From a virus (taxonomy: Duplodnaviria > Heunggongvirae > Uroviricota > Caudoviricetes), in the IMG/VR virus record IMGVR_UViG_2554235189_000017, positions 1 to 38,614 of that record: DNA of 38,614 bases; one strand, given 5' to 3'. Shown here in pieces: positions 559 to 25,288 of this stretch; position 1 is the first letter of the stretch; each line of letters begins with the position of its first letter. The translations under genes and the position numbers were made by a program. The notes below the pieces were generated by a model, which was not told the origin of the DNA, searched no databases, and saw only the letters and a list, made by a program, of their open reading frames with translations.

Positions 559-2988
559 TTAGTCTCCAGGATTTCCGGGGCGGTTCAGGTAGGTCTTACT
601 GCCGTTTCTCATGTCAGGAGCCTCATCATCTGGATCAGAAAAATTATACCCAAGAGTTAAATCATTAACCGTGGCATTATTCCCTGTTATTCCTTTGACT
701 TGATTAACACTTAACGGTATGTAATTAAACCCTGCAAAAAGCGGTGTTAACTTTTCTCTAAATAAAAGGCCTGGTGGGTATACTAACGAAGGTGTACCAT
801 CATATGTCACTGAGATAATATTAAGTCCCTTTTTAAGGGTTCCAATGCACGTTGTTTGTTTGCCTGTAAATGATGTTAGCCCATTGCTGGCAACTTTACC
901 TGATAGATAAGAAGAGTTCCTGATGTCATTGAGAATGACATTGAACTGGTTAACACGATCTGATGAAGTATAAGTTGGGTTATATGGCTCAAATAATGTT
1001 ACAGAGATATCGCTTGTATCACTCCATACAAAATACCGACAAATAACATTTTCATTTGAAGGCGTAATCCTTCCCCATCCACCAAGTGCATCAAGATAAT
1101 CACCTCCACTTAATATCGAAATTGATGGATAGTATCTGGTATTTGAAGGGTATCCAATACCAATAAATGAAAGTTGAGTAGTAGGGATTAGGTTCTTATT
1201 TTTTACAGCTGTATAAACGCGCTCTTTTAATACCTCTTTTGCAGCATAAGCACCGATGTAAGCATGCCCTATCGTTGATGGATGACTCTGATCAAAGACA
1301 GTTCCTCCATCACGCTTGGAAATATCAGAGATAGAATACGTACCAATGTCAGCATAAGCGTCAGTTGTGGCAACTGACAGATCCAGAAACTCAACTTTTT
1401 GAAAAAGACGCTCGATACGCTTCTTAATAGCTGCCTCCAGAAAAGCCTTTGGTGCATCATTATTGTTTACAGTAACAAAGCATATAGGACAACCATATCC
1501 CCATGATTTTCTAATCAACTTTTCAAATTCATGAAAATACGCTTCAAATCCTATTGTTGGAAGTATTCCATTGTCATTAAAACCAAGGCTTATAAAAAGA
1601 ACATCAGGAGCTTTTTTTCCATACGCAGCATTCTGGAAAAATCCATAGTCGAAGTTTTCATAACCCCAACCTGTGGCTAAAGCCTTTCCTGAAGAGGCAC
1701 AGTTGTATCCTTTAAAAATATTTGTTGTACTGTCAGATAGCATGTTCAGGCAATCAGTGAAGATCCTGAACCAGGAATACTTTCCGCCATTGAGGTTGTG
1801 GTTGTGGTTGGTTGAATTAAGATTACCATCGCTATCAGTTGGGTTCGGGGTCCATCCTGAACTATAGGCTCCATCCGTTATAGAATCACCAATGATACCT
1901 ACATGGCAATCTTCTATAGTTGATTGGTAACTCTGCTTATTTGCAAATTTAGCAATTGTTCCAAGAGCAGTAAAATCAGGGCCATTGTTAGATAGCCCAA
2001 CATCAAAAACATGCTCATTACCCCATTTGTCTCTTGTGAGAATTTTACCTTCTCCAAGAAATTTAGTCACATCATCTGACGGTAAAAAATTACACCTGAT
2101 GGTTACATCTTTTGGGATGTAAATCTGACCGGGGAAAGCATAAATTGCACTTCTGTTGTCAGTTGTCGTGTTAATAACGACATTTGGAACATAAAATATT
2201 GACGTTGCGTCAGTTCTATATTGTCCGTTAACAAGCTCAGATCTGAGAACCGCATCCCCAACACCTCTCCAAGCGCCAGGGCCGACACCACCAGCAGTGG
2301 TAGGAGTTGATCCAGGCGGAACTACTTTGGGCAGTGGCCCGTCCCATCTGTAGTATTCGCCGTTGCTTTCCCAGAGAAGAACATCGTTAAGATAGATGAG
2401 GGTATTACCCAACTCAAAAGATTTCTTCGTGTTATATCCATACAATCCATTTCCTAAGGTTTCAATAATGGTGCTAAGTAAGGAACTAAATTTTGCATAA
2501 AGATCATCAGTATATTTTTTTGTAGCAGCATCTTGAGGAAGAGATGGATCACGAAGGTTTCTAATGTAATTTGAAAGCGCGTCATAAAAAATTGCTACGT
2601 CAGTTGGCTTTCTTAAAGCCAACTTATCATTTCTTAATGATTGTTGAATGAGCATTGTAAGTTTATCAAACGCATCCTCATGCACCTCAGCGAAGAACTT
2701 ACCCTGGTTGCGCAGATCGGTATCCTGCGTAACCGGTAGCTCTCTTGATATAGAAATCTGATAACCGTTAGCCAACGCCTTCGACAGAATTACATTGCCG
2801 CCGTTATACCCTCCAGCACCAGTGACTATGTAATCAGTATCAAGAATCAGCTCTGTGATGTTCTCGTTCAGGTCAACAACCTGCACTACTAAATCAGATT
2901 TCTGGAAAATCCTGAAGGTATAAGGGAATGCCGTTGTAACACCGTTACCGGTGTATTCGTTGTGGTCAACTTCGGTTGATACCGTCAT
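559..2988 (-). CDS. Tailspike/tail fiber with conserved N-terminal virion-attachment domain and central SGNH/GDSL hydrolase domain (putative O-antigen deacetylase); 3' end replaced by IS sequence
   Basis: 809 aa; N-terminus [17 protein letters not shown] resembles a conserved tail-fibre N-domain; GDSITDG esterase motif mid-protein; the last ~8 codons and the stop lie inside the IS inverted repeat. Confidence 0.75.
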
Positions 2989-3163: not shown

Positions 3164-3182
3164 ATTGCATGGAGAAGATAAG

Positions 3183-3440
3183 ATGCAGCGGTATCACTAT
3201 CCACTGGAAGACGGATTTACCGAAAGGATTCACACGCCGGGAGGCGTCAGGTCACTGGTGGAGGGATCGCACTTGATGAAATTACTCCGGGATCTCGATA
3301 AGGATGGATTTAATGTCGATGGCCCACTTGCCGAACTGACTGCACTGATTAACTACGTCACCAGCTCACAGATGACTATGCAGGATCTGCAAACACATCT
3401 CGACTATTGTGCCGAACAATTACGAAAACAAACCAGATAA
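3183..3440 (+). CDS. Small SOS-regulated antirepressor-like protein (Tum-like), 85 aa
   Basis: GGAG RBS 8 nt upstream; LexA box immediately upstream; sequence LMKLLRDLDKDGFNVDGPLAELT...DLQTH aligns with the C-terminus of the downstream Bro-N antirepressor (LMNLLNQLQEDGHDVSGAAAELT...DIQTH). Confidence 0.6.
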   Translation: MQRYHYPLEDGFTERIHTPGGVRSLVEGSHLMKLLRDLDKDGFNVDGPLAELTALINYVTSSQMTMQDLQTHLDYCAEQLRKQTR

Positions 3441-3600: not shown

Positions 3601-3755
3601 TGCGTTAAGCACAGCCATATCCGAATTATGGTGGGCTGGGCAGGGGTCCGAAAGGACGCCGGTACCACTTAGGCCGGTACGCCAACCTTGTCCAGTTCAC
3701 CACCAGTAATTGGCGTTGCGGTGGTGATTAAAATCACTAAGTGGAGATAACCACC

Positions 3756-4466
3756 ATGGCTAATGCTCAAACTGCCATCTTCAAATTTGAATCTGTTAAC
3801 CCTATCCGTTCCATCATTATCGATGGCCAACCATGGTTTGTAGCCCAAGACGTTTGTAGTGCGCTGCGTATCCAAAACGTCACCCAATCACTTGAAAAAC
3901 TGGATGATGATGAAAGGTCTATGTTCAACATAGGGCATGAACATCGTGCAATTTTTGATAGCCGAGTAAAAGAGATCAACATCATCTCCGAGTCAGGCCT
4001 CTACACACTGATCCTCCGCTGCCGCGATGCGGTGACACCAGGCACTATCCCCTACCGCTTTCGTAAATGGGTTACAGGTGAGGTTCTTCCTCAGATCCGC
4101 CGCACCGGAAGTTACATTAAAAACTCGCTCCCGCAGGAAGAACGCATAAAGATGGTTGCCGACCAGGTAGCCAACGCCACAGCATCAGCAGTGATGCAGG
4201 CAATGAAGATAGAGAACAAAACCTACAGTGCCCCACTGAAGCCCGGCTACCGTAGCCTGATTCATTCGCCGTCTGGTGTTCTCGGCCTGACTGAGAACTC
4301 ACTGCTGATGAATCTGCTGAACCAGTTACAGGAAGACGGGCATGATGTATCGGGCGCAGCGGCGGAGCTGACCACCATGTTCTGCTACATCGTCGGTGTG
4401 AGCAAATGCCTGCGTGATATCCAGACGCACGCGGAGTACATCAACGACAAGGCAGGGTTCTTCTGA
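3756..4466 (+). CDS. Phage antirepressor, Bro-N/AntA-like N-terminal domain with antirepressor C-terminal domain
   Basis: GGAGA RBS then ATG 3756; N-terminus AIFKFESVNPIRSIIIDGQPWFVAQDVCSAL is Bro-N-like. Confidence 0.75.
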   Translation: MANAQTAIFKFESVNPIRSIIIDGQPWFVAQDVCSALRIQNVTQSLEKLDDDERSMFNIGHEHRAIFDSRVKEINIISESGLYTLILRCRDAVTPGTIPYRFRKWVTGEVLPQIRRTGSYIKNSLPQEERIKMVADQVANATASAVMQAMKIENKTYSAPLKPGYRSLIHSPSGVLGLTENSLLMNLLNQLQEDGHDVSGAAAELTTMFCYIVGVSKCLRDIQTHAEYINDKAGFF

Positions 4467-4547: not shown

Positions 4548-4664
4548 GAAAGTTGATTTGTAACATTTTAGTTTGTAGTTACCGTGATGGTTTTGCTGCA
4601 GAAAGTTAACTAGTCAAAATCACACCGTATGTAAGTCACGTCTGTTCCCGTATGGGAGGATGAT

Positions 4665-4883
4665 ATGTTTAAATTTGATATGCAACTCAACCAAAACTAT
4701 GCCTCTTTTTACCATCCAGAAACTGGTAAAGCTGTTTTCGTTGACTCTTTCGATAATGAAGAATTTGATATCAGAATTGGGACCCTACGCCAAAGTAAGC
4801 ATGTTGCTACTGTACGTGCATCCAATGATGATGAATTAAATCAAAAAATAAGTGAGGCGACCTCCCGTTATCTATGTCTATAA
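4665..4883 (+). CDS. Hypothetical protein (72 aa), first gene of an AT-rich two-gene operon
   Basis: GGGAGG RBS then ATG; ends 10 nt inside the next ORF (translational coupling); AT-rich versus flanks. Confidence 0.55.
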   Translation: MFKFDMQLNQNYASFYHPETGKAVFVDSFDNEEFDIRIGTLRQSKHVATVRASNDDELNQKISEATSRYLCL

Positions 4884-5251
4884 CAGAACAACAACTCATT
4901 GATCTTGAGGATGAGATTAACGAGATCTTGCAAGAAGATGCGGCAAGAATTCACTTTTCATTTCATGCAGCATATGAACGCCTGAACGACGAGAGGAACA
5001 AACCGCCAATTACTCTTGCTGAGCTTGAAGATGTGTTTAAATCGTTTATATCTGCACATCTGCAGACTGTTTTGGATTTTGCCGAAGGTACAACTTTCAC
5101 CATAAAGTGCAACAAAAGCGCCCTTCATTTTCCTTGCGCCATTGTACACGAAAGAGAGTTTGGGAAAACGTGGATTATCCAAAACGTCATTACAGCCATG
5201 AGGAAAGTGGGATTCAAGTCTAAAGATTCTATTATCCTCGAAGTTAATTAA
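4874..5251 (+). CDS. Hypothetical protein (125 aa), second gene of the AT-rich two-gene operon
   Basis: Overlaps upstream ORF; acidic helical N-terminus; followed directly by a terminator. Confidence 0.55.
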   Translation: MSITEQQLIDLEDEINEILQEDAARIHFSFHAAYERLNDERNKPPITLAELEDVFKSFISAHLQTVLDFAEGTTFTIKCNKSALHFPCAIVHEREFGKTWIIQNVITAMRKVGFKSKDSIILEVN

Positions 5252-5273
5252 GCCCGCGCCGCGGGCTTTTTTG
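5251..5273 (+). terminator. Rho-independent terminator (AGCCCGCGCCGCGGGCT + T6)
   Basis: GC-rich hairpin plus TTTTTT immediately after the stop codon. Confidence 0.7.
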
Positions 5274-5344
5274 TGGACGAAACAAAAGTCAGTGCTACAC
5301 TCATTGACGCCACATTGAGGTGGCTTATAGATGGAAATTTCACA

Positions 5345-5506
5345 ATGAAAAAAGCATTTGCTGCACTGTTCGTTTTGTTGTCTCTGGTAGCTTCAACTCA
5401 GGCCTTTGCTGGTCGTTGTCAGCACGACAGCGATACTGCCGCTGACGGATCCCGCTGCGGTGGGCGTTCTGCGGATTCCCGCCCGGGCGGCGGTGGCATT
5501 CGTTAA
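5345..5506 (+). CDS. Small secreted peptide: Sec signal peptide plus ~31-aa Gly/Arg-rich two-Cys mature peptide
   Basis: MKKAFAALFVLLSLVASTQAFA has classic n/h/c regions with an AxA cleavage site; no lipobox. Confidence 0.45.
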   Translation: MKKAFAALFVLLSLVASTQAFAGRCQHDSDTAADGSRCGGRSADSRPGGGGIR

Positions 5507-5512
5507 AAACAA

Positions 5513-5528
5513 GGCCGCGAAAGCGGCC
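5513..5528. terminator. Hairpin GGCCGC-GAAA-GCGGCC between convergent genes (possible bidirectional terminator)
   Basis: Perfect 6-bp stem with GAAA loop; T-rich run on the minus-strand side. Confidence 0.4.
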
Positions 5529-5529
5529 T

Positions 5530-5541
5530 GTGACATGTCAC
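5530..5541. repeat. 12-bp perfect palindrome GTGACATGTCAC (copy 1 of 3)
   Basis: Exact 12-mer also at 23012-23023 and 25277-25288, each within 0-5 nt of a stop codon. Confidence 0.8.
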
Positions 5542-5543
5542 GT

Positions 5544-5834
5544 TCATTTTCTGAATGATAGCCGTTCGAAAAATGATGACATTCCACCGCAGACAATAGC
5601 AAAGATGATCCCACCAAAGAAGAGAAGGCCAGCCTGCCACCACTCCCACCGCCATACATCCACAGCACCAACCATACCAACAATCGCTCCAACAAATGGA
5701 ATATAGCTCACGATGAAAGCAATGGGGGCTGCAATTATCCAGTGCAATCCCCACCATGATTCAAGCCCAGCCATAATTGCTGCCAACTGAAAAAGACCAA
5801 CGACGATATAAACAATGAATCCTATAGCTTGCAT
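5544..5834 (-). CDS. Small multi-pass membrane protein (96 aa); holin-like or lysogenic-conversion candidate
   Basis: AGGTGA RBS; about three hydrophobic segments; last gene of the minus-strand virion operon. Confidence 0.6.
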   Translation of the reverse strand: MQAIGFIVYIVVGLFQLAAIMAGLESWWGLHWIIAAPIAFIVSYIPFVGAIVGMVGAVDVWRWEWWQAGLLFFGGIIFAIVCGGMSSFFERLSFRK

Positions 5835-5846
5835 GTAGTCACCTAT

Positions 5847-6020
5847 TTACCCAGTAAAAATCAGAGGCCTCCCCTCAATAAGGCTTGCAACAAGAACTAT
5901 TCCCTGCACAACAAAGATGAACCAGCAAATAGCTTGAGTCTGAGGGTTAAGAAAATATTTGTAGCGGTCAATAAATAACAACCCACCAGAAATTATCACA
6001 CTCAAAATAATTAAAAACAC
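5847..6020 (-). CDS. Possible small membrane protein (~57 aa) with non-ATG start
   Basis: Open frame between the stop of the 824-aa gene and the 96-aa gene; hydrophobic; start codon (GTG/TTG) uncertain. Confidence 0.25.
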   Translation of the reverse strand: MFLIILSVIISGGLLFIDRYKYFLNPQTQAICWFIFVVQGIVLVASLIEGRPLIFTG

Positions 6021-6029
6021 AACACTTCC

Positions 6030-8504
6030 TTATTGCGGAGTGACATCCTGAGGTCGCCACCAGTATGTCTGATTAAACTCTTTCTTCGAACGTTGCTCCA
6101 TTTTACGCAAATAGCCTGGTGAAAAATACTCCTGCATCTGGTTAAAGATCATGTGATCGAGAGCCGCCTTCAAGTACCAGAGATTCGCACCTGGCATCAA
6201 ACCTTTCCCCAGCTTCACCAGATCACCACCAGTCTGCTCACTCTTCCCTTCCACAGCATTTAACGGTATGCCCTGAGCAATCTTCACTACGTCATCAACC
6301 AGACCAGCTACCGGGCCAAGCATCGACGCCAGCGCGCCGCTTCCGTACCTAGTGTGATCTGACAATAAAAAGTCACCGTAAAGGCCAAGACCACCACCTT
6401 TCAGTAGAGCACCAAGCCAGAATTTTGCGGCATCTTCTCCTGTCATCTCTCGAGGATTACGACCAGACGCAAGGTCGTTAAGTTGCTGCGACAAAGCGCC
6501 AAGAATGGTCGTACTGGCAATAAACGTCGCAATATATGCCGCACGCCCACCAGCAGACGGCATACCCATAGCGCGTGACCAGTGACGCATAACAACCGAG
6601 ATAGGGAACGATTTAAACAGGAAAACACTTCTCGTTAATTCACCTTTCCATGTTCCACGCTGAATACCAGAACCGGTTATCAGTTGCTCACGAGCTCCCG
6701 GTGTAATAACAGCCATATCAACTTCTTCAGTTACGGCACCGAGCAATTTACGCATTGCCTCAAATTTCACGCGCTCAGGCTCACCAAGATGTTTAACTGC
6801 TGAATCAGGGATACGCATAATGCTTTCCGGTGTCAGCATCGTATTATTACCGTTCCCCCAGTCCTCCTGTTGCGCCAGCTTCCATACGCTCCAGTCTGTG
6901 TCAGTAATCCCTTTGCTTTTCAGGATACGAAAATCAGAGTCATCGAGGCTACGAAGGTCTGGTGTCAGTGACACTACTTCTCCCAGGCTTCCCATCATGG
7001 TTACGCCATAGGCGCGCTTGTGCGCATCTGACCATGCTGTAAGCCCACTGGCACGCATTACCGCCGTTGCCGCCCAACGAGACACTGACGGCCCCATATT
7101 ATCCATCGCCCAGCGGTTAACGCTGCCAAGTAGAGATTCCATCGCCAGACCAGCGCGGCGCGCCCGCGCAAGTTCTGTACGGTTCGTTGGGTCCATAGCT
7201 TCAAGCTGGTTGCGGAATAACTGGTTCATTGGAAGGTTGGTAACCTTCGCAGACAGATACATGGTTCCAAGATCAGAGAACGATGACAGCAACGCGGATC
7301 CGAGTCTGCTGGCAACCAGCCAGTTGCGGATATTGTCAGACCATCGCGCGATGTGCGGATTCGCTACAGGCTGTGTCTTTCCGGAAATAAAGTTGTACAG
7401 ATTCTCTGTGTTGTTCGCCAGCCGCTCGACTTTACCGGTTTTACTCGGGTTAGCTGTTGCCGTTTCTGCCTTCACCTGATCAAGAAGAGAGCGGAAAACA
7501 TGATCGGGGTTTGGGCCATATGTTTCCACCAGTGCAATATCTTTACTGATACCTTCCAGGTGACCGACCATGATTTCCCATAGAGAGCGATCGCCATAAA
7601 GTTGCTGATATTGCAGATAGGAATCTGCATCTTTGAAATGTATCTGTCGTGATGCATTACCACGGTTAGCACGTGCGCCGGAAATTCGCATTCCGGTATC
7701 AGTAAGCTTATTCAGCCCACCAGTAGCGATCGTGTTATAAGCCTCTCCAAGAAATGCAGACAACTCGGCATCGTTCATCAGTTGTCCATCGGCTCGGGTA
7801 TAATATTTGCGATCCAGCTTACCTATAACATCGCTAACCCATTTATCTTTTGATACCGCCCCAACCTTTTCCATAGAATGATGTTGAGGGATCCCCCAGT
7901 TTTCGAGATAGCCAATGTCCCCACCAGCATCATTAAACCGGCGGCGCAGCAGCTCTGTAACTTCTCTCCACGCCTTAGCACCTTTTCTTGCTTTAGCATT
8001 GCCAGTATTTTGCCCCCGCATTTCATATACCAGGTCACGTACGCCCGCTTCATCTTCAAACAGACCAAAAAAGCGGGGATCAACTGCTTCGAATGCCTCC
8101 TGCAATTGACTCAATGCATAATCACGAGTGGCTTTTGTTCTGGATTCAACAGAGAGGAAATTCGATTTACCGTCTGCATTAAAAGCAATAGTACGGTTAA
8201 GAGCGCCAAGTTTCCCATCAGCCCCTTGATAGTTATTGATAAATTTATCCAATCTCTGACGTGCGGCTATAGTGAGGGCCACACGACGTTTCTTTAATGC
8301 CGCTTCTCGCTGTAATTCTTCAGATGCCAATTGTGCTGCACGATACAACCGTTCTGATTCGGAAAGTTGTCGCCACGACATCGGGTCATCACGAGCAATG
8401 GAGCGCATATTTCGATAAATGCGGTCTTCAATGTTCTGTATTTCTCGCGCCGTTAACGTGCGCTGCGCCGCCTGCTGGACCGCTTGTATACATTCCTGTC
8501 TCAT
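6030..8504 (-). CDS. Internal virion / ejection protein (824 aa)
   Basis: Large ORF in a tandem run of large virion genes after the tubular proteins, as in T7/epsilon15-like core gene sets. Confidence 0.55.
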   Translation of the reverse strand: MRQECIQAVQQAAQRTLTAREIQNIEDRIYRNMRSIARDDPMSWRQLSESERLYRAAQLASEELQREAALKKRRVALTIAARQRLDKFINNYQGADGKLGALNRTIAFNADGKSNFLSVESRTKATRDYALSQLQEAFEAVDPRFFGLFEDEAGVRDLVYEMRGQNTGNAKARKGAKAWREVTELLRRRFNDAGGDIGYLENWGIPQHHSMEKVGAVSKDKWVSDVIGKLDRKYYTRADGQLMNDAELSAFLGEAYNTIATGGLNKLTDTGMRISGARANRGNASRQIHFKDADSYLQYQQLYGDRSLWEIMVGHLEGISKDIALVETYGPNPDHVFRSLLDQVKAETATANPSKTGKVERLANNTENLYNFISGKTQPVANPHIARWSDNIRNWLVASRLGSALLSSFSDLGTMYLSAKVTNLPMNQLFRNQLEAMDPTNRTELARARRAGLAMESLLGSVNRWAMDNMGPSVSRWAATAVMRASGLTAWSDAHKRAYGVTMMGSLGEVVSLTPDLRSLDDSDFRILKSKGITDTDWSVWKLAQQEDWGNGNNTMLTPESIMRIPDSAVKHLGEPERVKFEAMRKLLGAVTEEVDMAVITPGAREQLITGSGIQRGTWKGELTRSVFLFKSFPISVVMRHWSRAMGMPSAGGRAAYIATFIASTTILGALSQQLNDLASGRNPREMTGEDAAKFWLGALLKGGGLGLYGDFLLSDHTRYGSGALASMLGPVAGLVDDVVKIAQGIPLNAVEGKSEQTGGDLVKLGKGLMPGANLWYLKAALDHMIFNQMQEYFSPGYLRKMEQRSKKEFNQTYWWRPQDVTPQ

Positions 8505-8509
8505 TTAAT

Positions 8510-10312
8510 TTAACCTCTCAAGAAACACGCCACAGCAACATCAAACAGGCTGGAATCCTGTATTGCCTGCTCACTTTCCCTGTTCGCTTCATCCAGTACT
8601 TCACGCGCACTGCGCGATTGTGGATTACCATCATCATCCAGCACGGTGATTATCATGTCCGGAGATTCAAGCAGCGAGTCTTCAGCTATACGCAGATCAA
8701 TATCTCCTGCCGGATCTGCCATCATTTTTTGTTCTGTCTGTTGCAATATCTTACCGGGCTCAAAAGGAGCTACTTCGTCTGGCGTCCTGACCTCTGCTGT
8801 TTTATAGAATGAAACAGCCTGAGCATTAAGTTCACTTTCTGCCTGCTGTCGTCGTGCCAGTTCTGCTCGAGCTTCAAAAAACTGACCGCCAGGCTCATGC
8901 GGTGCCAACGCGTTACGGGAAAATTCCAGGCGCTCTTGTGCCTGCCGGATTCGTTGGTCAATATCGCGAAGTCTGACCTGTTTATCTGATCGAGCACGAG
9001 ACAAAGCTTTACCGCTACCGGTTGGCTCTTCTGCAAGAATTTGTGCGCGCTGTTCAGTGAGATTTTCAATAATTCGTTGGCTATTAGCGATTTCAGACTG
9101 GTAAACCTGTCTATCGCCACGCGGCAAAAGCTGCGCGGCCTGTTCTTCAAGCAACCGATTTTCTATAGCGCGCGCCGTTACTCCATCATCTACAGATGAC
9201 AGAGCCTCATTAACTGCCTGAGACAGCAGACTCTTGCGCCCAGGAATTTCACTGAAAGATGCAGACTCAACAATGCTGGCAACGTCTACAGGTCTCCCCT
9301 CGCTAACATCAGACATAGCTTTTCTCAGAGCCTGAATGTGAGAATTGCGCGAAAGCACGTTGATCGGCACGCCTGGCGCAATATCAATTTCAGCATGATG
9401 AGCGGCATTCGCCGCCAGTGCAGCATCAACATCAACTGGTGAAAAATTTGGTGCGCTTGTAGACTCGCCGCGAGAGTTAATAAATCTGCCGACACCACCA
9501 AACGCCACCCCAAGAACAGCATCAATAGCAATTGCCTGTCGATCCAACACATCATACTGGTTATCCATTTCGCTATAGCCACCATCACGAAGCGTTTTTG
9601 CAGTAAGCCCACGCTGTGCCATACCGAACGCAATATTTGTACCTGCGGCATAGGCAATATCTGGCGTTGCACGTACTGCTGTTGCTGCGGCGCGTCGCAC
9701 TGAACTTTCACCCGTCCGCGCAAGCTGGGCCGCCACACCTTCCGCCAGCGCACCACCAGCACGTAACCCGAGGCTCATAGGGATCAGTGTTCCGGCACCA
9801 GCAGTAATACCCTGCACTAATCCTGCTTCCTGCGCCGTCCTGAAATCAACACCCTGTGCTGTCAGCCGTTCAAACTCAGAAAAACCCTGTAGCGAAGTTA
9901 CCGCCGCTGCACCTCCGACCGGACCACCGAGCGTTGTACCGACAACAGCCTGCCCGCCCATATCGAACAACCCATAAAGAACCTGCCCGGCGGTTCCGGT
10001 TGTCGCGGCATCAGGCGTCAGCCGCTTAACCTGCTGCTCTGCTAGTTTTCTCTGCTCGGCAATGTATGAAACTGAAGTGTCATTGAGCGAGGTGTTTTCG
10101 TTAACAAACTGAGCAATCGGGGATACGATTTTATCCATCCCTGCCCATAGCAACTGGTCTGGCTTTGCCACCAGCCCGGAGTACAAACCAGACAATGCCG
10201 CTCCTACAGAATTGTCGAAAAAACCAACATCGCTGTTAAAGCCAGCTGGATTTGATGCTGCTTCGTCAAGCTGCTGATTCTGGTTTACTGGATTAAGGCC
10301 AAAGTAACTCAT
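8510..10312 (-). CDS. Internal virion protein (600 aa), Gly/Ala-rich
   Basis: ATGA start/stop overlap with upstream gene; position in structural operon. Confidence 0.55.
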   Translation of the reverse strand: MSYFGLNPVNQNQQLDEAASNPAGFNSDVGFFDNSVGAALSGLYSGLVAKPDQLLWAGMDKIVSPIAQFVNENTSLNDTSVSYIAEQRKLAEQQVKRLTPDAATTGTAGQVLYGLFDMGGQAVVGTTLGGPVGGAAAVTSLQGFSEFERLTAQGVDFRTAQEAGLVQGITAGAGTLIPMSLGLRAGGALAEGVAAQLARTGESSVRRAAATAVRATPDIAYAAGTNIAFGMAQRGLTAKTLRDGGYSEMDNQYDVLDRQAIAIDAVLGVAFGGVGRFINSRGESTSAPNFSPVDVDAALAANAAHHAEIDIAPGVPINVLSRNSHIQALRKAMSDVSEGRPVDVASIVESASFSEIPGRKSLLSQAVNEALSSVDDGVTARAIENRLLEEQAAQLLPRGDRQVYQSEIANSQRIIENLTEQRAQILAEEPTGSGKALSRARSDKQVRLRDIDQRIRQAQERLEFSRNALAPHEPGGQFFEARAELARRQQAESELNAQAVSFYKTAEVRTPDEVAPFEPGKILQQTEQKMMADPAGDIDLRIAEDSLLESPDMIITVLDDDGNPQSRSAREVLDEANRESEQAIQDSSLFDVAVACFLRG

Positions 10313-12822
10313 TGCGGAATATCTCCGGAGAATCTCTGACGCTTCTGTGTCAGATTAAGAACAACGGGAGAACCATCATCTTTCAGTAGATAACCAGTAC
10401 CAAGTTTCACCAGGTACTGACTATCGCCGTAACTTTGCAAACCATACTGACCAGGCGGTGTTTTTATCCCGGAGCCGACAACTTGTTCATTCCAAGCCTG
10501 ATTAACCCGCTTATCGAATTGCTCTGCAGACATTCCCCACGGCAAAAGGACATTCCCCATTCCGTTATAGTCATGCACGCCACCTGTAGCTACGTTAACA
10601 GCCTGTTTCCAGACATCATTGTCAATTTCGCCTGATACCACGCCTTTTTTCGCCATCACACCAGCGTAATAATCCTTTGCGATCTCGTATGCCATTGATG
10701 CTCCCTGAGCGTCACCAGCAAATGCATCCTTCACCATGTCAGAAAACTCAAAGCGAAGATCAGCATCTTTAGGCATCGGAATACCTTTCGCGTCATCAGT
10801 ACCTTTACGAGCCGCCGCACCAGCAAGAATTGTCTGCGCTGCGGTTTCAGGAGACACGGAAACATCAGGATTAAACCAGTTTTTTTCTGCCAAAATACCA
10901 CCAGGCTTATCCATCAGTATCCCGGCAACGGCAGCAGATGGAGCGTTGGCACTGATCTGCTGTAGTGCTGACATATACACCTGCCCACCACCAGTGCTCT
11001 GCCTGATGGTATCGAGATATGCTGCCTGTTGGGAAACTGGCGCATCACGAAAGAAAACACCGATCTGATTGGCCTCGTCTTTGGAAAAGAACGTCAGTGG
11101 AGTGCCATATGACTTAGCAAGGTCACTGACCTGAGCGGCACGCAAGGCAACGCTCTGTCCAAAGTTATCCTTATTGCTCATGTCGATAGGCTTTGCCTGT
11201 CCGGCGGCAAGAGAGAACTGCACAGGATCCGATTGCCGCTGCTTTATCACCTGATTTGCAGCCGAAACAACGTTGTCATAAAGAGCTGCGCGTGCCGCAT
11301 ACCCCTCCCCTGTCTCACCAGTATCCGGGCGTAATTGCTCAACATATGCTGTAATGCTGCTTGTCGGCATATTGCGGAAAGAGCCTATATACTGTCCGGC
11401 GATCTGCGTATTTCTGAACTCGGTATATCGCAGGTTTCCTTCTCTGACGCCATAAGCTGCAATAAAATCAGCCTCACCAGGTGGGTTAGGAAATTCAACG
11501 CCACGCATATACGCAGCCGTCGCATCGCGAACCTGGCTGTCAATCATCGTTTTATATTCAGCCTGCTGCTGCCGACGAAGTTGATCCGCCTGTCGCATAA
11601 AACTTGCCTGCGCCTCAGGAGATGCCGCATCGAATGCTGCATTACCGGTATAGCGTTTAGTGTTGGTTGGAATTGTTGATAAACCAAGTGCTGCACTGAC
11701 ACCAGCAGTTAACTGCTGATCACTGTATGGCTGGCTACCGTTCTCATGATGGATAATGGCTGCACAAAGCGCCTTCAGGGTATCAGGATTAGATGCATCG
11801 AGAGGTTCATCAGCAGAAACGCCAAGTTGTTCGCACACTGCTTTGATATACGACATAGTGTCATTTTTATCAGTAGGCGGTGCCCAGCGATTAATTATCT
11901 CGCTGACGGTATCAATACCCTGCCTCTGATACGACATCAGGTTCCGCCCTAATGCACGAATCCCGTGTTCAGGTGTTTCGAATTTAGCAAATCGACCATC
12001 ATCACCGGTCTGGCCTACCCACGGATTAGTTTTGCTGTATTCGAGATTTCCTGGGTTATTGTTGCGTATGCCACGGGCACGCTCGGAAGAGTCACTATCT
12101 GCTACAGCACGGCGAGCTCCAGCAACAGTATCACTTAACTCGCCATTACTTTGGATGAATGCGGTCGCATTGTTTGCCGACCACTGGGACAATGCGGCAT
12201 CAGCAACCTTCTCTTTAAACTCGATTTTCTTGGCCTGTATTTGCTCGTCGCTCCAGCCATGCGCAATGCCGTAATCCTCAATTTGCTGGAAAGTTTGCTT
12301 ATTAGCCAATACGTATGCGGCGTTGTCGCCATACAATGCTGCGGCATTTTTACCATTGTTCAGCAGCGTCGCCTGAAACTGGCCTTCTTCGTAGGCATTT
12401 ATTTGCCCTATCTCGTGCCGCCCGGCCTGCGTAGTGAACTGAATACGCTGCTGCTGCGCCTGCTGCATGAAAGCATTACGAGCCTGTTCATCCGGCAGCG
12501 ACATAGCCAGTTGTTCGATCTGAGCATCAAACTGCTGCGTATACTCCTGACCTTTTCCAATAGCATTTTTCCCTTTCAGGTTAAGCAAACCTGTTTCAGG
12601 GTTATTCAGCAGATCGCTGCTTATCTGACTGAGGTTAAGAGATGCCTCCTGAGCCAGAGCGATATTGGCACGCTGTTTTGCCTGCCCCAAAACATCAATT
12701 GCCTCTGTCCCTGCCCGAACAAAAGCATCACCAATACCTTGCTGAGAAAACGTCTGCAAGCCTGCTGACTGAACTCCACGACTCTCAACCTGACGTCCGG
12801 ATACTGTTGGTACGACTGGCAT
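10309..12822 (-). CDS. Internal virion / ejection protein (~837 aa), possibly with an enzymatic domain (RNNNPGNL motif)
   Basis: Start placed at MPVVPT (AGGAG RBS; TAATG overlap with upstream stop) rather than the track's 12897. Confidence 0.55.
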   Translation of the reverse strand: MPVVPTVSGRQVESRGVQSAGLQTFSQQGIGDAFVRAGTEAIDVLGQAKQRANIALAQEASLNLSQISSDLLNNPETGLLNLKGKNAIGKGQEYTQQFDAQIEQLAMSLPDEQARNAFMQQAQQQRIQFTTQAGRHEIGQINAYEEGQFQATLLNNGKNAAALYGDNAAYVLANKQTFQQIEDYGIAHGWSDEQIQAKKIEFKEKVADAALSQWSANNATAFIQSNGELSDTVAGARRAVADSDSSERARGIRNNNPGNLEYSKTNPWVGQTGDDGRFAKFETPEHGIRALGRNLMSYQRQGIDTVSEIINRWAPPTDKNDTMSYIKAVCEQLGVSADEPLDASNPDTLKALCAAIIHHENGSQPYSDQQLTAGVSAALGLSTIPTNTKRYTGNAAFDAASPEAQASFMRQADQLRRQQQAEYKTMIDSQVRDATAAYMRGVEFPNPPGEADFIAAYGVREGNLRYTEFRNTQIAGQYIGSFRNMPTSSITAYVEQLRPDTGETGEGYAARAALYDNVVSAANQVIKQRQSDPVQFSLAAGQAKPIDMSNKDNFGQSVALRAAQVSDLAKSYGTPLTFFSKDEANQIGVFFRDAPVSQQAAYLDTIRQSTGGGQVYMSALQQISANAPSAAVAGILMDKPGGILAEKNWFNPDVSVSPETAAQTILAGAAARKGTDDAKGIPMPKDADLRFEFSDMVKDAFAGDAQGASMAYEIAKDYYAGVMAKKGVVSGEIDNDVWKQAVNVATGGVHDYNGMGNVLLPWGMSAEQFDKRVNQAWNEQVVGSGIKTPPGQYGLQSYGDSQYLVKLGTGYLLKDDGSPVVLNLTQKRQRFSGDIPQ

Positions 12823-13367
12823 TATAATCCTCCGGGTAATCTGGTTCCTGCTGCTGCCACGATTGGCGCAGGAGTGCTTTGAGTAAACGGACTCCACGTC
12901 CCACCAAACATCTGGTACGCACCGTATGCCTTCAGAGGCGCAGTGAGCAATGTTGTTGCTGCTCCCACATTCCCCTGTTTACGGGCTGAACTGGCTTCTG
13001 CTTTATAGTTGGCAGCCTGAACCTGATAACCGTAAGCTTCGCGTTGCGCGTTATTCACCGTCGTCAGCGAATCAAGAGCGCCAAACTGGGCAGTGTCGCC
13101 AAATATATCCAGCGCGTTACCTGTAGATAAATCAGAGCCGGTAGCCCCCATTGTCGCCGCCTGTGTACCAAGCCGCTGTCGGGTCTCTCTGCGCCGTTGC
13201 TCAGCTTCAGCGTTACCCCTGTTTATTGCATCATTTGCCTGAGCTGTGGCTATATCTGCGTTCGCTTCTGCAACCTTCGAGGCATACTTTCCCTGTTGGT
13301 ACTGGGTGTATGCCTGAATGCCACTCATGGCGAGCATTGCGCCACCAGCAATAACCGGATCGCACAT
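12822..13367 (-). CDS. Virion structural protein (181 aa)
   Basis: Coupled to flanking genes; Ala/Gln-rich helical protein. Confidence 0.5.
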   Translation of the reverse strand: MCDPVIAGGAMLAMSGIQAYTQYQQGKYASKVAEANADIATAQANDAINRGNAEAEQRRRETRQRLGTQAATMGATGSDLSTGNALDIFGDTAQFGALDSLTTVNNAQREAYGYQVQAANYKAEASSARKQGNVGAATTLLTAPLKAYGAYQMFGGTWSPFTQSTPAPIVAAAGTRLPGGL

Positions 13368-22710: not shown

Positions 22711-23007
22711 ATGAGCGAAACATCAACAGTATCTTTCTCCACTGCTTTGTCATCACTCAAAGATGGTAAGCGCATTGCACGTGCCGGATGGAATGGCAAA
22801 GGCATGTATCTGCAACTGGTTAAGCCACCGCAATCGGCCACTCCGAACGATTGGCGATTTGACGTTACATGCGGTGACGAGTATACATTTGTACCTGGCG
22901 TTAAACTTCTACCGTGGATTGGGATGAAAACTGCTGACGGTTGCTTTGTACCGTGGCTGGCATCTCAAACCGATATGCTATCTGATGACTGGATTGTAAT
23001 TCAATAA
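22711..23007 (+). CDS. DUF2829-like small protein (98 aa), candidate Tad2-type anti-Thoeris sponge
   Basis: ARAGWNGKGMYLQL near N-terminus and WLASQTDMLSDDW near C-terminus match my recollection of DUF2829; opposite strand to flanking late genes. Confidence 0.5.
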   Translation: MSETSTVSFSTALSSLKDGKRIARAGWNGKGMYLQLVKPPQSATPNDWRFDVTCGDEYTFVPGVKLLPWIGMKTADGCFVPWLASQTDMLSDDWIVIQ

Positions 23008-23011
23008 CACC

Positions 23012-23023
23012 GTGACATGTCAC
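23012..23023. repeat. 12-bp perfect palindrome GTGACATGTCAC (copy 2 of 3)
   Basis: Exact copy 5 nt after the stop of the DUF2829-like gene. Confidence 0.8.
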
Positions 23024-23026
23024 AAA

Positions 23027-23055
23027 CAGCCAGCCTATGAGCTGGCTTTGTTTTA
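23027..23055 (+). terminator. Rho-independent terminator after the DUF2829-like gene
   Basis: CAGCCAGC-loop-GCTGGCT stem followed by TTGTTTTA. Confidence 0.6.
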
Positions 23056-25276: not shown

Positions 25277-25288
25277 GTGACATGTCAC
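25277..25288. repeat. 12-bp perfect palindrome GTGACATGTCAC (copy 3 of 3)
   Basis: Overlaps the stop codon of the 25285..25626 gene. Confidence 0.8.

Follow-up and report, generated by a model that had tools for sequence, protein, structure and literature searches.

A short open reading frame (ORF) of 53 codons, set between the tailspike gene and the virion operon of a prophage, raised the question of whether it is a gene and, if so, what its product does. The ORF lies in IMG/VR record IMGVR_UViG_2554235189_000017 (Caudoviricetes, positions 1 to 38,614). This whole stretch of 38,614 nucleotides was analyzed and is referred to as the window, and all coordinates are those of the window unless another sequence is named. 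The window was found to be an almost complete Uetakevirus (epsilon15/phiV10-like) prophage, which agreed with the prophage origin given in an initial annotation made from the sequence alone. The ORF and its encoded precursor were delimited as follows.

5345-5506, plus strand: coding sequence of the small ORF, stop codon included (ATG at 5345, TAA at 5504-5506, 53 codons)
5345-5410, plus strand: predicted signal peptide, residues 1-22, MKKAFAALFVLLSLVASTQAFA (n-, h- and c-regions read in the sequence; predicted cut after AFA)
5411-5503, plus strand: predicted mature peptide of 31 residues, GRCQHDSDTAADGSRCGGRSADSRPGGGGIR, read from the sequence
5417-5491, plus strand: conserved core of 25 residues, Cys25-Gly49, C-x4-D-x-A-x-DGS-x-CG-x-R-x-A-x-x-RPGG, with columns invariant or nearly so

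The small ORF is a genuine gene under purifying selection. It is more than a chance ORF because it matched a PHROG family over its full length, because its homologues kept the reading frame, and because synonymous differences far exceeded nonsynonymous ones. The object is of an ordinary kind, a prophage moron for a small exported peptide, previously annotated as hypothetical; its interest lies in the strong and wide conservation of the core and in the lack of any description of the module that the core represents. The explanation we favour, with about even confidence, is that the gene is a Uetakevirus moron encoding an exported, cleaved periplasmic peptide that binds a conserved envelope component.

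The full-length match was to PHROG 14503 (E 2.3e-40, residues 1-53 on profile positions 1-53 of 53). This family, called "membrane associated protein" and placed in the moron category, is the same as the "transmembrane anchored protein" of NCBI. The ORF is a member of it, sharing its size, the N-terminal hydrophobic segment, and the core motif C-x4-D/Q-x-A-x-DGS-x-CG-x-R-x-A-x-x-RPGG. The family name is descriptive, and no Pfam or NCBIfam model, structure or publication was found for the family. In the first database search, 57 close homologues were obtained from Escherichia, Shigella, Klebsiella, Citrobacter, Cronobacter, Salmonella, Pectobacterium, and Dickeya. The frame was kept in these and likewise in over 1000 wider homologues; absence of a conserved frame was one of the two findings that the initial annotation had named as grounds for refutation. 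Alignment of the close homologues showed a variable signal peptide followed by a near-invariant C-Q-H-D-x-D-T-A-A-D-G-S-R-C-G-G-R-S-A-D-S-R-P-G-G. Over the 25-codon core in 14 enterobacterial DNA copies, the proportion of synonymous differences (pS) was 0.71, which is saturated, and the proportion of nonsynonymous differences (pN) was 0.11, giving a ratio of 0.155; between the window and the Buttiauxella copy, pS was 0.84 and pN was 0. The core motif occurred once in the six frames of the whole window. The ATG at 5345 is the true start, because the homologues all begin with M-K/R there and the protein sequence upstream is unconserved. Gene calls of 71-77 aa starting at GTG 5273 were rejected as over-extensions, the added N-terminal part being unconserved.

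The N-terminal 22 residues had the composition of a Sec/signal peptidase I signal peptide throughout. The n-region was M-K-K with a charge of +2, the h-region (A4-A16) comprised 13 residues with a mean Kyte-Doolittle hydropathy of 2.74, and the polar c-region STQAFA placed Ala at -3 and -1 and Gly at +1 (A-F-A|G), with no Pro at +1. Conservation of the cleavage site was counted in 163 unique family members of the same architecture, with residues numbered from the first Cys. Position -3 (five before the first Cys) was A, S or V in 91% of these relatives, position -1 (three before) was Ala in 141 of 163 (87%), and position +1 (two before) was Gly in 148 of 163 (91%). The A-x-A|G-x-C junction was retained in about 90%, and the hydrophobic core was far less conserved than these three positions. 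The motif [LVI][ASTVI][GAS]C was not found ahead of Cys25, where the residues are A-G-R, and a lipobox is excluded because Arg at -1 of Cys25 is disallowed. Some cyanobacterial relatives (P0252; L032, L037, and L044) do carry a lipobox upstream of the module, together with a Ser/Gly linker and in place of the signal peptide. A precursor with a canonical Sec signal peptide and a cleavage motif conserved family-wide is thus firmly supported by sequence, as the initial annotation had proposed along with the A-x-A site and the missing lipobox. Export by Sec and cleavage after Ala22 very probably follow in the cell.

The strongest alternative is that the N-terminal segment stays uncleaved, so that the product would be a 53-residue inner-membrane micro-protein (N-in, C-out) that, like MgrB, targets a membrane protein of the host within the plane of the membrane. 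MgrB is an uncleaved small membrane regulator with a transmembrane helix and a periplasmic Cys pair, and regulators of this type resemble the small ORF product in their length of about 50 residues, the N-terminal hydrophobic helix, and the short periplasmic part with two conserved Cys. The NCBI and PHROG names given above also speak of a membrane anchor, and most longer relatives carry the module near a transmembrane helix or lipid anchor, so membrane proximity may belong to its function. However, conservation is much stronger for the small residues at -3 and -1 and for Gly at +1 than in the hydrophobic core, the 13-residue h-region has the length of a signal peptide and is short for a membrane span, and neither MgrB nor another small-membrane-protein model was matched in NCBIfam. 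The main argument against an anchor without cleavage is the conserved A-x-A|G junction, which signal peptidase I needs and an anchor would hardly explain; we regard this alternative as possible but unlikely.

The predicted mature peptide contains 8 Gly, 5 Arg, 4 Asp, 4 Ser, and 2 Cys, with a computed mass of 3060 Da and a pI of 8.1. The two Cys, Cys25 and Cys38, are spaced Cys-x12-Cys and are invariant, so that the description of the product as a Gly/Arg-rich peptide of about 31 residues with two Cys was accurate. The term "secreted" in the initial annotation holds for the Sec signal and fails for a location outside the cell, since Sec export in Gram-negative bacteria leads to the periplasm. 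An AlphaFold2 (AF2) model of the precursor had a predicted local distance difference test score (pLDDT) of 72 with a helix at residues 2-18, and a Foldseek search of this model against the PDB gave 0 matches.

The peptide was not specific to phages, a point beyond the initial annotation: the bacterial protein families that contain the core number in the hundreds and range from Proteobacteria to Cyanobacteria. When one genome was scanned for each bacterial species, the same core was recovered in small ORFs with signal peptides in many groups, including Rhizobiales (Mesorhizobium, Rhizobium, Agrobacterium, Devosia, Bradyrhizobium, and Methylobacterium), cyanobacteria (Dolichospermum, Anabaena, and Nostoc), Vibrio, Rhodoferax, Bacteriovorax, and a myxobacterium. 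A profile search yielded at least 1013 clusters at 90% identity, and an exhaustive HMMER search at E up to 0.001 yielded at least 581 clusters at 50% identity in Proteobacteria and Cyanobacteria. Across the 163 relatives the invariant positions were both Cys, A32, D34-G35-S36, G39, R41, R46, and P47-G48-G49; the first Asp of the motif was D or Q across the family. Between E. coli prophages, rhizobia, and cyanobacteria the core hardly changes. Its architectures were counted among the best 150 representatives.

64 of 150: signal peptide and module, as in the window
27 of 150: signal peptide, module, and a soluble extension
About 24 of 150: signal peptide or lipobox, module, RNPDTDW spacer, transmembrane helix, and a cytoplasmic domain of about 150 residues
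About 18 of 150: two hydrophobic segments ahead of a C-terminal module

Tandem copies of the module with Pro/Thr linkers also exist. In P0273 an exported SNase nuclease (Pfam 1.8e-12) is followed by the module, and in P0274 a bacterial SH3 domain is followed by a four-cysteine variant of it. Most of the longer relatives have a transmembrane helix or lipid anchor no more than a few residues from the module. The recurrence of the module at protein termini and beside membrane anchors, with unrelated domains, in distant diderm bacteria suggests a generic binding or targeting module.

The proteins with the RNPDTDW spacer are represented by the P0164 type (L077 1913-2572, L078), of 220-290 aa, in which the module, the spacer, and a transmembrane helix are followed by a helical cytoplasmic domain. 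AF2 modeled this domain as a helical bundle with a pLDDT above 94; it had no Pfam match, and the best hit of a fold search against the PDB had an E of about 1. The genes of this type lie in an operon headed by an SNase nuclease gene, which says nothing decisive on function. The type with two hydrophobic segments (P0158, P0185, P0216, P0234, P0247, P0251, and P0253; L174-L176) begins with a signal peptide or lipobox, after which come a short domain, a hydrophobic segment, and the C-terminal module, and in many of these relatives F-C-S-S-x-x-C-K directly precedes the hydrophobic segment. Standard topology rules place the module of this type in the cytoplasm, unlike every other architecture.

The module is described in no domain database (Pfam, NCBIfam), PDB structure or paper that we found. 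A Pfam scan of the small ORF gave no family even at E 10, and a sequence-profile search against the PDB gave 0 matches at E 10. The NCBIfam scan gave two chance-level matches only, HxsA3 and MarB, both through the signal peptide. No literature was found on "transmembrane anchored protein" together with phage, or on the peptide string. DUF6719 was also considered and rejected: it weakly matched one four-cysteine variant (E 0.034), and three sister proteins did not reproduce the match.

The gene lies in a cassette with the following elements.

5250-5278, plus strand: intrinsic terminator of the upstream plus strand genes and left cassette boundary (stem at 5250-5268, then a T run)
5293-5301, plus strand: candidate extended -10 element TGcTACACT (hexamer at 5296-5301; transcription start predicted at about 5307-5309)
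5309-5324, plus strand: small hairpin at the predicted mRNA 5' end (GCCAC at 5309-5313, GTGGC at 5320-5324)
5333-5337, plus strand: weak Shine-Dalgarno-like GGAAA, 7 nt ahead of the ATG (GGTAAG, GGAAAG or AAGGA there in homologues)
5512-5529, minus strand: G+C-rich hairpin 5 nt past the ORF stop, scored in the terminator scan as terminator of the convergent virion operon
5530-5541, no strand: perfect 12-bp palindrome GTGACATGTCAC, right cassette edge

Boundaries were mapped on 80 IMG/VR contigs encoding the identical protein, by taking the homology stretch to the window that covered the ORF. The left end of homology fell at 5240-5269 in 75 of the 80 contigs and the right end at 5500-5549 in 56 of them. 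Because the homology ended sharply on both sides, the unit is a discrete cassette that spans about 290 bp and extends from one hairpin to the other. Its site is an accessory island, with the tailspike gene on one side and the virion/injection operon on the other, and the tail-proximal position reported earlier was thus specified as a terminator-bounded cassette beside the tailspike gene. In the terminator scan the upstream terminator had 8 pairs, 6 of them G-C, followed by TTTTGTGGAC.

A promoter of its own is a candidate for the small ORF. In 14 enterobacterial loci with otherwise unrelated flanks, TAcnnT of the -10-like element was invariant or nearly so, and an ACACA motif also recurred upstream of the ATG. 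The 5' untranslated hairpin was predicted by single-sequence RNA folding in 12 of these 14 loci. For the alignment the sequences were hand-trimmed around the per-sequence hairpins and the two loci lacking a hairpin were left out; in these 12 sequences, compensatory changes were present in all 5 pairs predicted by RNAalifold, and a sixth, outer pair added for counting varied one-sidedly. With six pairs, 87.5% of cells were paired, versus 74% in shuffled alignments (0 of 500 reached the observed value) and 22-61% when the partner was slid. The hairpin could stabilise the mRNA. An Rfam search of 5150-5650 gave sub-threshold matches only, the best being Leu_leader on the upstream terminator hairpin (E 0.0035), far below gathering scores.

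The palindrome was found at a fixed distance past the ORF in about 70 of the 80 viral contigs, and also in Kluyvera, Klebsiella, and Buttiauxella. The perfect sequence occurred three times in the window (5530-5541, 23012-23023, and 25277-25288); with up to two mismatches allowed the count was also three, versus 0.27 expected, and 0 of 100 shuffles reached three. It may serve as a site for protein binding or mark a module junction. Each copy adjoins a terminator-like hairpin at an intergenic junction.

With the terminator at 5250-5268, the hairpin at 5512-5529, and its patchy presence, the small ORF has the structure of a moron. Like the classic morons (lambda bor and lom, HK97 gp15) described by Hendrix and colleagues, it is a small gene between conserved phage genes with flanking terminators and a candidate promoter; it is likewise present or absent among relatives with discrete junctions, and its product is predicted to be directed to the envelope. 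It has no sequence relationship to them.

The patchy presence was seen both among phages and among host genomes. The region was 98% identical to enterotoxigenic E. coli (ETEC) H10407 and to phages phiv142-3, HEMP4, TL-2011b, and EC.W1-9, and the identical protein was encoded by all four phages (as Orf11 in phiv142-3). The cassette was present in 462 of 5426 complete E. coli genomes (about 1 in 12), and the gene in 304 IMG/VR contigs. No copy was found by tblastn in other Uetakevirus records. Phage phiV10 has the same island without the gene; the last 23 nt of the gene remain, joined to the end of a Bro-N/Ant-like gene. In this stretch (phiV10 2495-2560, corresponding to 5484-5545 of the window) the remnant abuts the Bro-N/Ant-like stop codon and is followed by the same hairpin and palindrome. 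Judging from this junction, phiV10 lost the small ORF by deletion, and the gene is dispensable, because the phage from which it was deleted is a viable temperate phage. Outside the enterobacteria, the Microvirga copy belongs to a podovirus-like prophage, where it is encoded on the opposite strand and flanked by tail/lysis genes on one side and by the genes of SLT-domain and Phage_stabilise proteins on the other, at the same relative position as in the window. The Devosia prophage that carries a copy also has terminase, portal, and protease genes, whereas a Mesorhizobium copy is part of a chromosomal island that is not phage-like. An alphaproteobacterial query found 17 IMG/VR viral contigs, 6 of them with alphaproteobacterial-type copies; the variant with a transmembrane segment ahead of the module was present in 3 contigs.

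The same data bear on a second alternative, that the gene is a neutral or selfish passenger spreading by recombination at its hairpin and palindrome boundaries. The sharp boundaries, the palindrome at the junction, and the loss in phiV10 without loss of viability are what such a passenger would leave, but purifying selection on the core is very strong across genera and phyla, and unrelated phage types acquired the gene independently; a passenger is quite improbable.

A third alternative concerns the module, which might be a miniature calcium-binding module of the Excalibur type (PF05901) with a DxDxDG-like loop. Both modules are short, bracketed by Cys, and extracytoplasmic, both often stand at the extreme C-terminus or alone behind a signal peptide, and both are fused to SNase on exported proteins. 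They share the pattern D-x-x-x-D-G-x-x-C: the D-T-A-A-D-G-S-R-C of the window aligns with the Excalibur D-R-D-G-D-G-x-A-C, and this was the sole segment aligned by hhalign. The comparison with 11 verified Excalibur domains (from plasmids), however, gave a probability of 1% and an E of 0.055 over 11 columns, and Pfam gave no match even at E 10. Relative to DxDxDGxxCE, in the window D-T-A-A-D-G-S-R-C-G, an invariant Ala replaces the middle Asp, Gln often stands in for the first Asp, and Gly takes the position of the final Glu; therefore only one acidic ligand is invariant, and the calcium ligands are unconserved. The Cys spacing also differs, the first Cys lying 5 residues upstream of the loop versus about 25 in Excalibur, and the second Cys is followed by a conserved 11-residue tail, G-x-R-x-A-x-x-R-P-G-G, that is extra in this module. 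Homology to Excalibur was rejected on the hhalign result and the ligands, and a calcium-binding role of this kind is highly improbable. Excalibur is nevertheless the nearest analogue that has been described, and the module may work in a similar way, as a small Cys-bracketed unit at protein termini.

A Sec-dependent antimicrobial peptide or toxin (bacteriocin-like) or a lysis accessory protein, which the small, cationic, Cys-containing, phage-borne product might suggest, is barely credible: no immunity, export or modification genes and no conserved neighbour lie nearby, Sec export ends in the periplasm, the lysis genes of this phage type are located elsewhere, the module is an ordinary domain of many larger proteins, and PADLOC gave no match. 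A spanin or other lysis role was likewise rejected, the gene lying away from the lysis cassette and the product having no lipobox.

The favoured explanation, an exported periplasmic peptide with an envelope target, can be stated stepwise. Transcription would start from a weak extended -10 promoter of the gene itself and give a short mRNA beginning with the small hairpin. Sec would export the 53-residue precursor and signal peptidase I would cut after Ala22, releasing into the periplasm a slightly basic peptide of 31 residues and 3.06 kDa. Since the Cys pair is invariant and the predicted location is the periplasm, we infer that DsbA joins Cys25 and Cys38 into a 14-residue ring, followed by the Gly/Arg tail ending in RPGG. 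The free peptide would be the free-standing form of a 25-residue extracytoplasmic module of many diderm bacteria and would bind a conserved envelope component near the inner membrane; the free prophage copy would compete for, or mask, that component. As a result, superinfecting phages might be excluded at the injection step, or the envelope properties of the lysogen might be altered.

Exclusion at injection would fit the location, because the cassette adjoins the injection-protein operon and the Ant gene. In P22, sieA and mnt-arc-ant lie between the ejection-protein genes and the tailspike gene, and T4 Sp (spackle) is a periplasmic superinfection-exclusion protein that is phage-encoded, small, and envelope-directed. 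The position of the cassette and the Ant gene corresponds to that of the sieA-immI region of P22, a possible analogy of position and function only; the small ORF has no sequence similarity to T4 Sp/spackle or to P22 sieA. PADLOC defence models gave no family for the small ORF or its small neighbours, except a marginal Cas8b (E 0.0092) for the 125-aa ORF at 4874-5251. All-against-all clustering of the flanking ORFs in 57 genome loci showed no conserved gene neighbour beyond Uetakevirus synteny; therefore the peptide probably acts alone or on host components. Genes of this island can affect the host: orf10 of phiv142-3, the neighbour of Orf11, contributes to serum resistance (PMC7724020). The role of lysogenic-conversion factor proposed in the initial annotation is plausible, a reading that rests on position.

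Several observations weigh against the favoured explanation. The core had moderate AF2 confidence (pLDDT about 70-80) without a regular fold, and the module was scored low by AF2 in a longer relative. About 18 of the 150 relatives have the topology that predicts the module in the cytoplasm; therefore the disulfide may not be obligatory and the target may not be exclusively periplasmic. A consensus promoter scan called no promoter upstream of the ORF; owing to a weak -35 it missed the -10-like element. As a plus strand terminator the downstream hairpin is poor here, lacking a good U tract; homologous cassettes in other genera have a plus strand hairpin with a proper T run. The identical Orf11 of phiv142-3 is absent from the serum-induced genes listed in the study of that phage and was not mutated there (PMC7724020).

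Should the target prove to be a conserved component of the envelope, this would account for an accessory gene that recurs in prophages and would define a new small extracytoplasmic domain of hundreds of bacterial protein families. The target could be found directly because a peptide of 3 kDa can be synthesised. A broader and rather doubtful conjecture is that the module is a general envelope-address or ligand-binding tag of diderm bacteria for one conserved membrane-surface component, and that its free form was captured repeatedly by temperate phages of at least two bacterial classes to saturate that component. If, for example, rival phages were thereby kept from injecting their genomes, this would be a new peptide-based class of superinfection exclusion.

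The genes around the cassette were as follows.

559-2988, minus strand: tailspike gene
3165-3440, plus strand: 91-aa ORF duplicating the C-terminal domain of Ant/BRO-N (both match phrog_450 and phrog_15539)
3741-4466, plus strand: Ant/BRO-N antirepressor, in the island
4874-5251, plus strand: 125-aa ORF, with a 72-aa ORF one of two unknown island genes upstream of the small ORF
5544-5834, minus strand: 96-aa small membrane protein (phrog_3075; named integral membrane protein in phiV10)
5847-6020, minus strand: 57-aa hydrophobic ORF with no PHROG or Pfam match
Beyond the small membrane protein, minus strand: two virion proteins
10309-12897, minus strand: protein with an injection-transglycosylase-like region

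The two small hydrophobic ORFs end the virion operon and are convergent with the small ORF; the phage injection proteins are encoded at 6030-12897. The cargo just upstream of the cassette varies among similar prophages, being a YafO toxin, a DUF2335 protein, Orf9/Orf10, or the 72- and 125-aa ORFs (4600-5250 in the window; 5692-5850 in phiv142-3). Elsewhere in the window, a lone 98-aa ORF (22711-23007, plus strand) lies inside the minus-strand structural region and is directly followed by a copy of the palindrome and a bidirectional terminator hairpin at about 23027-23050; the stretch 22711-23050 is a candidate for a further moron cassette of the same build.

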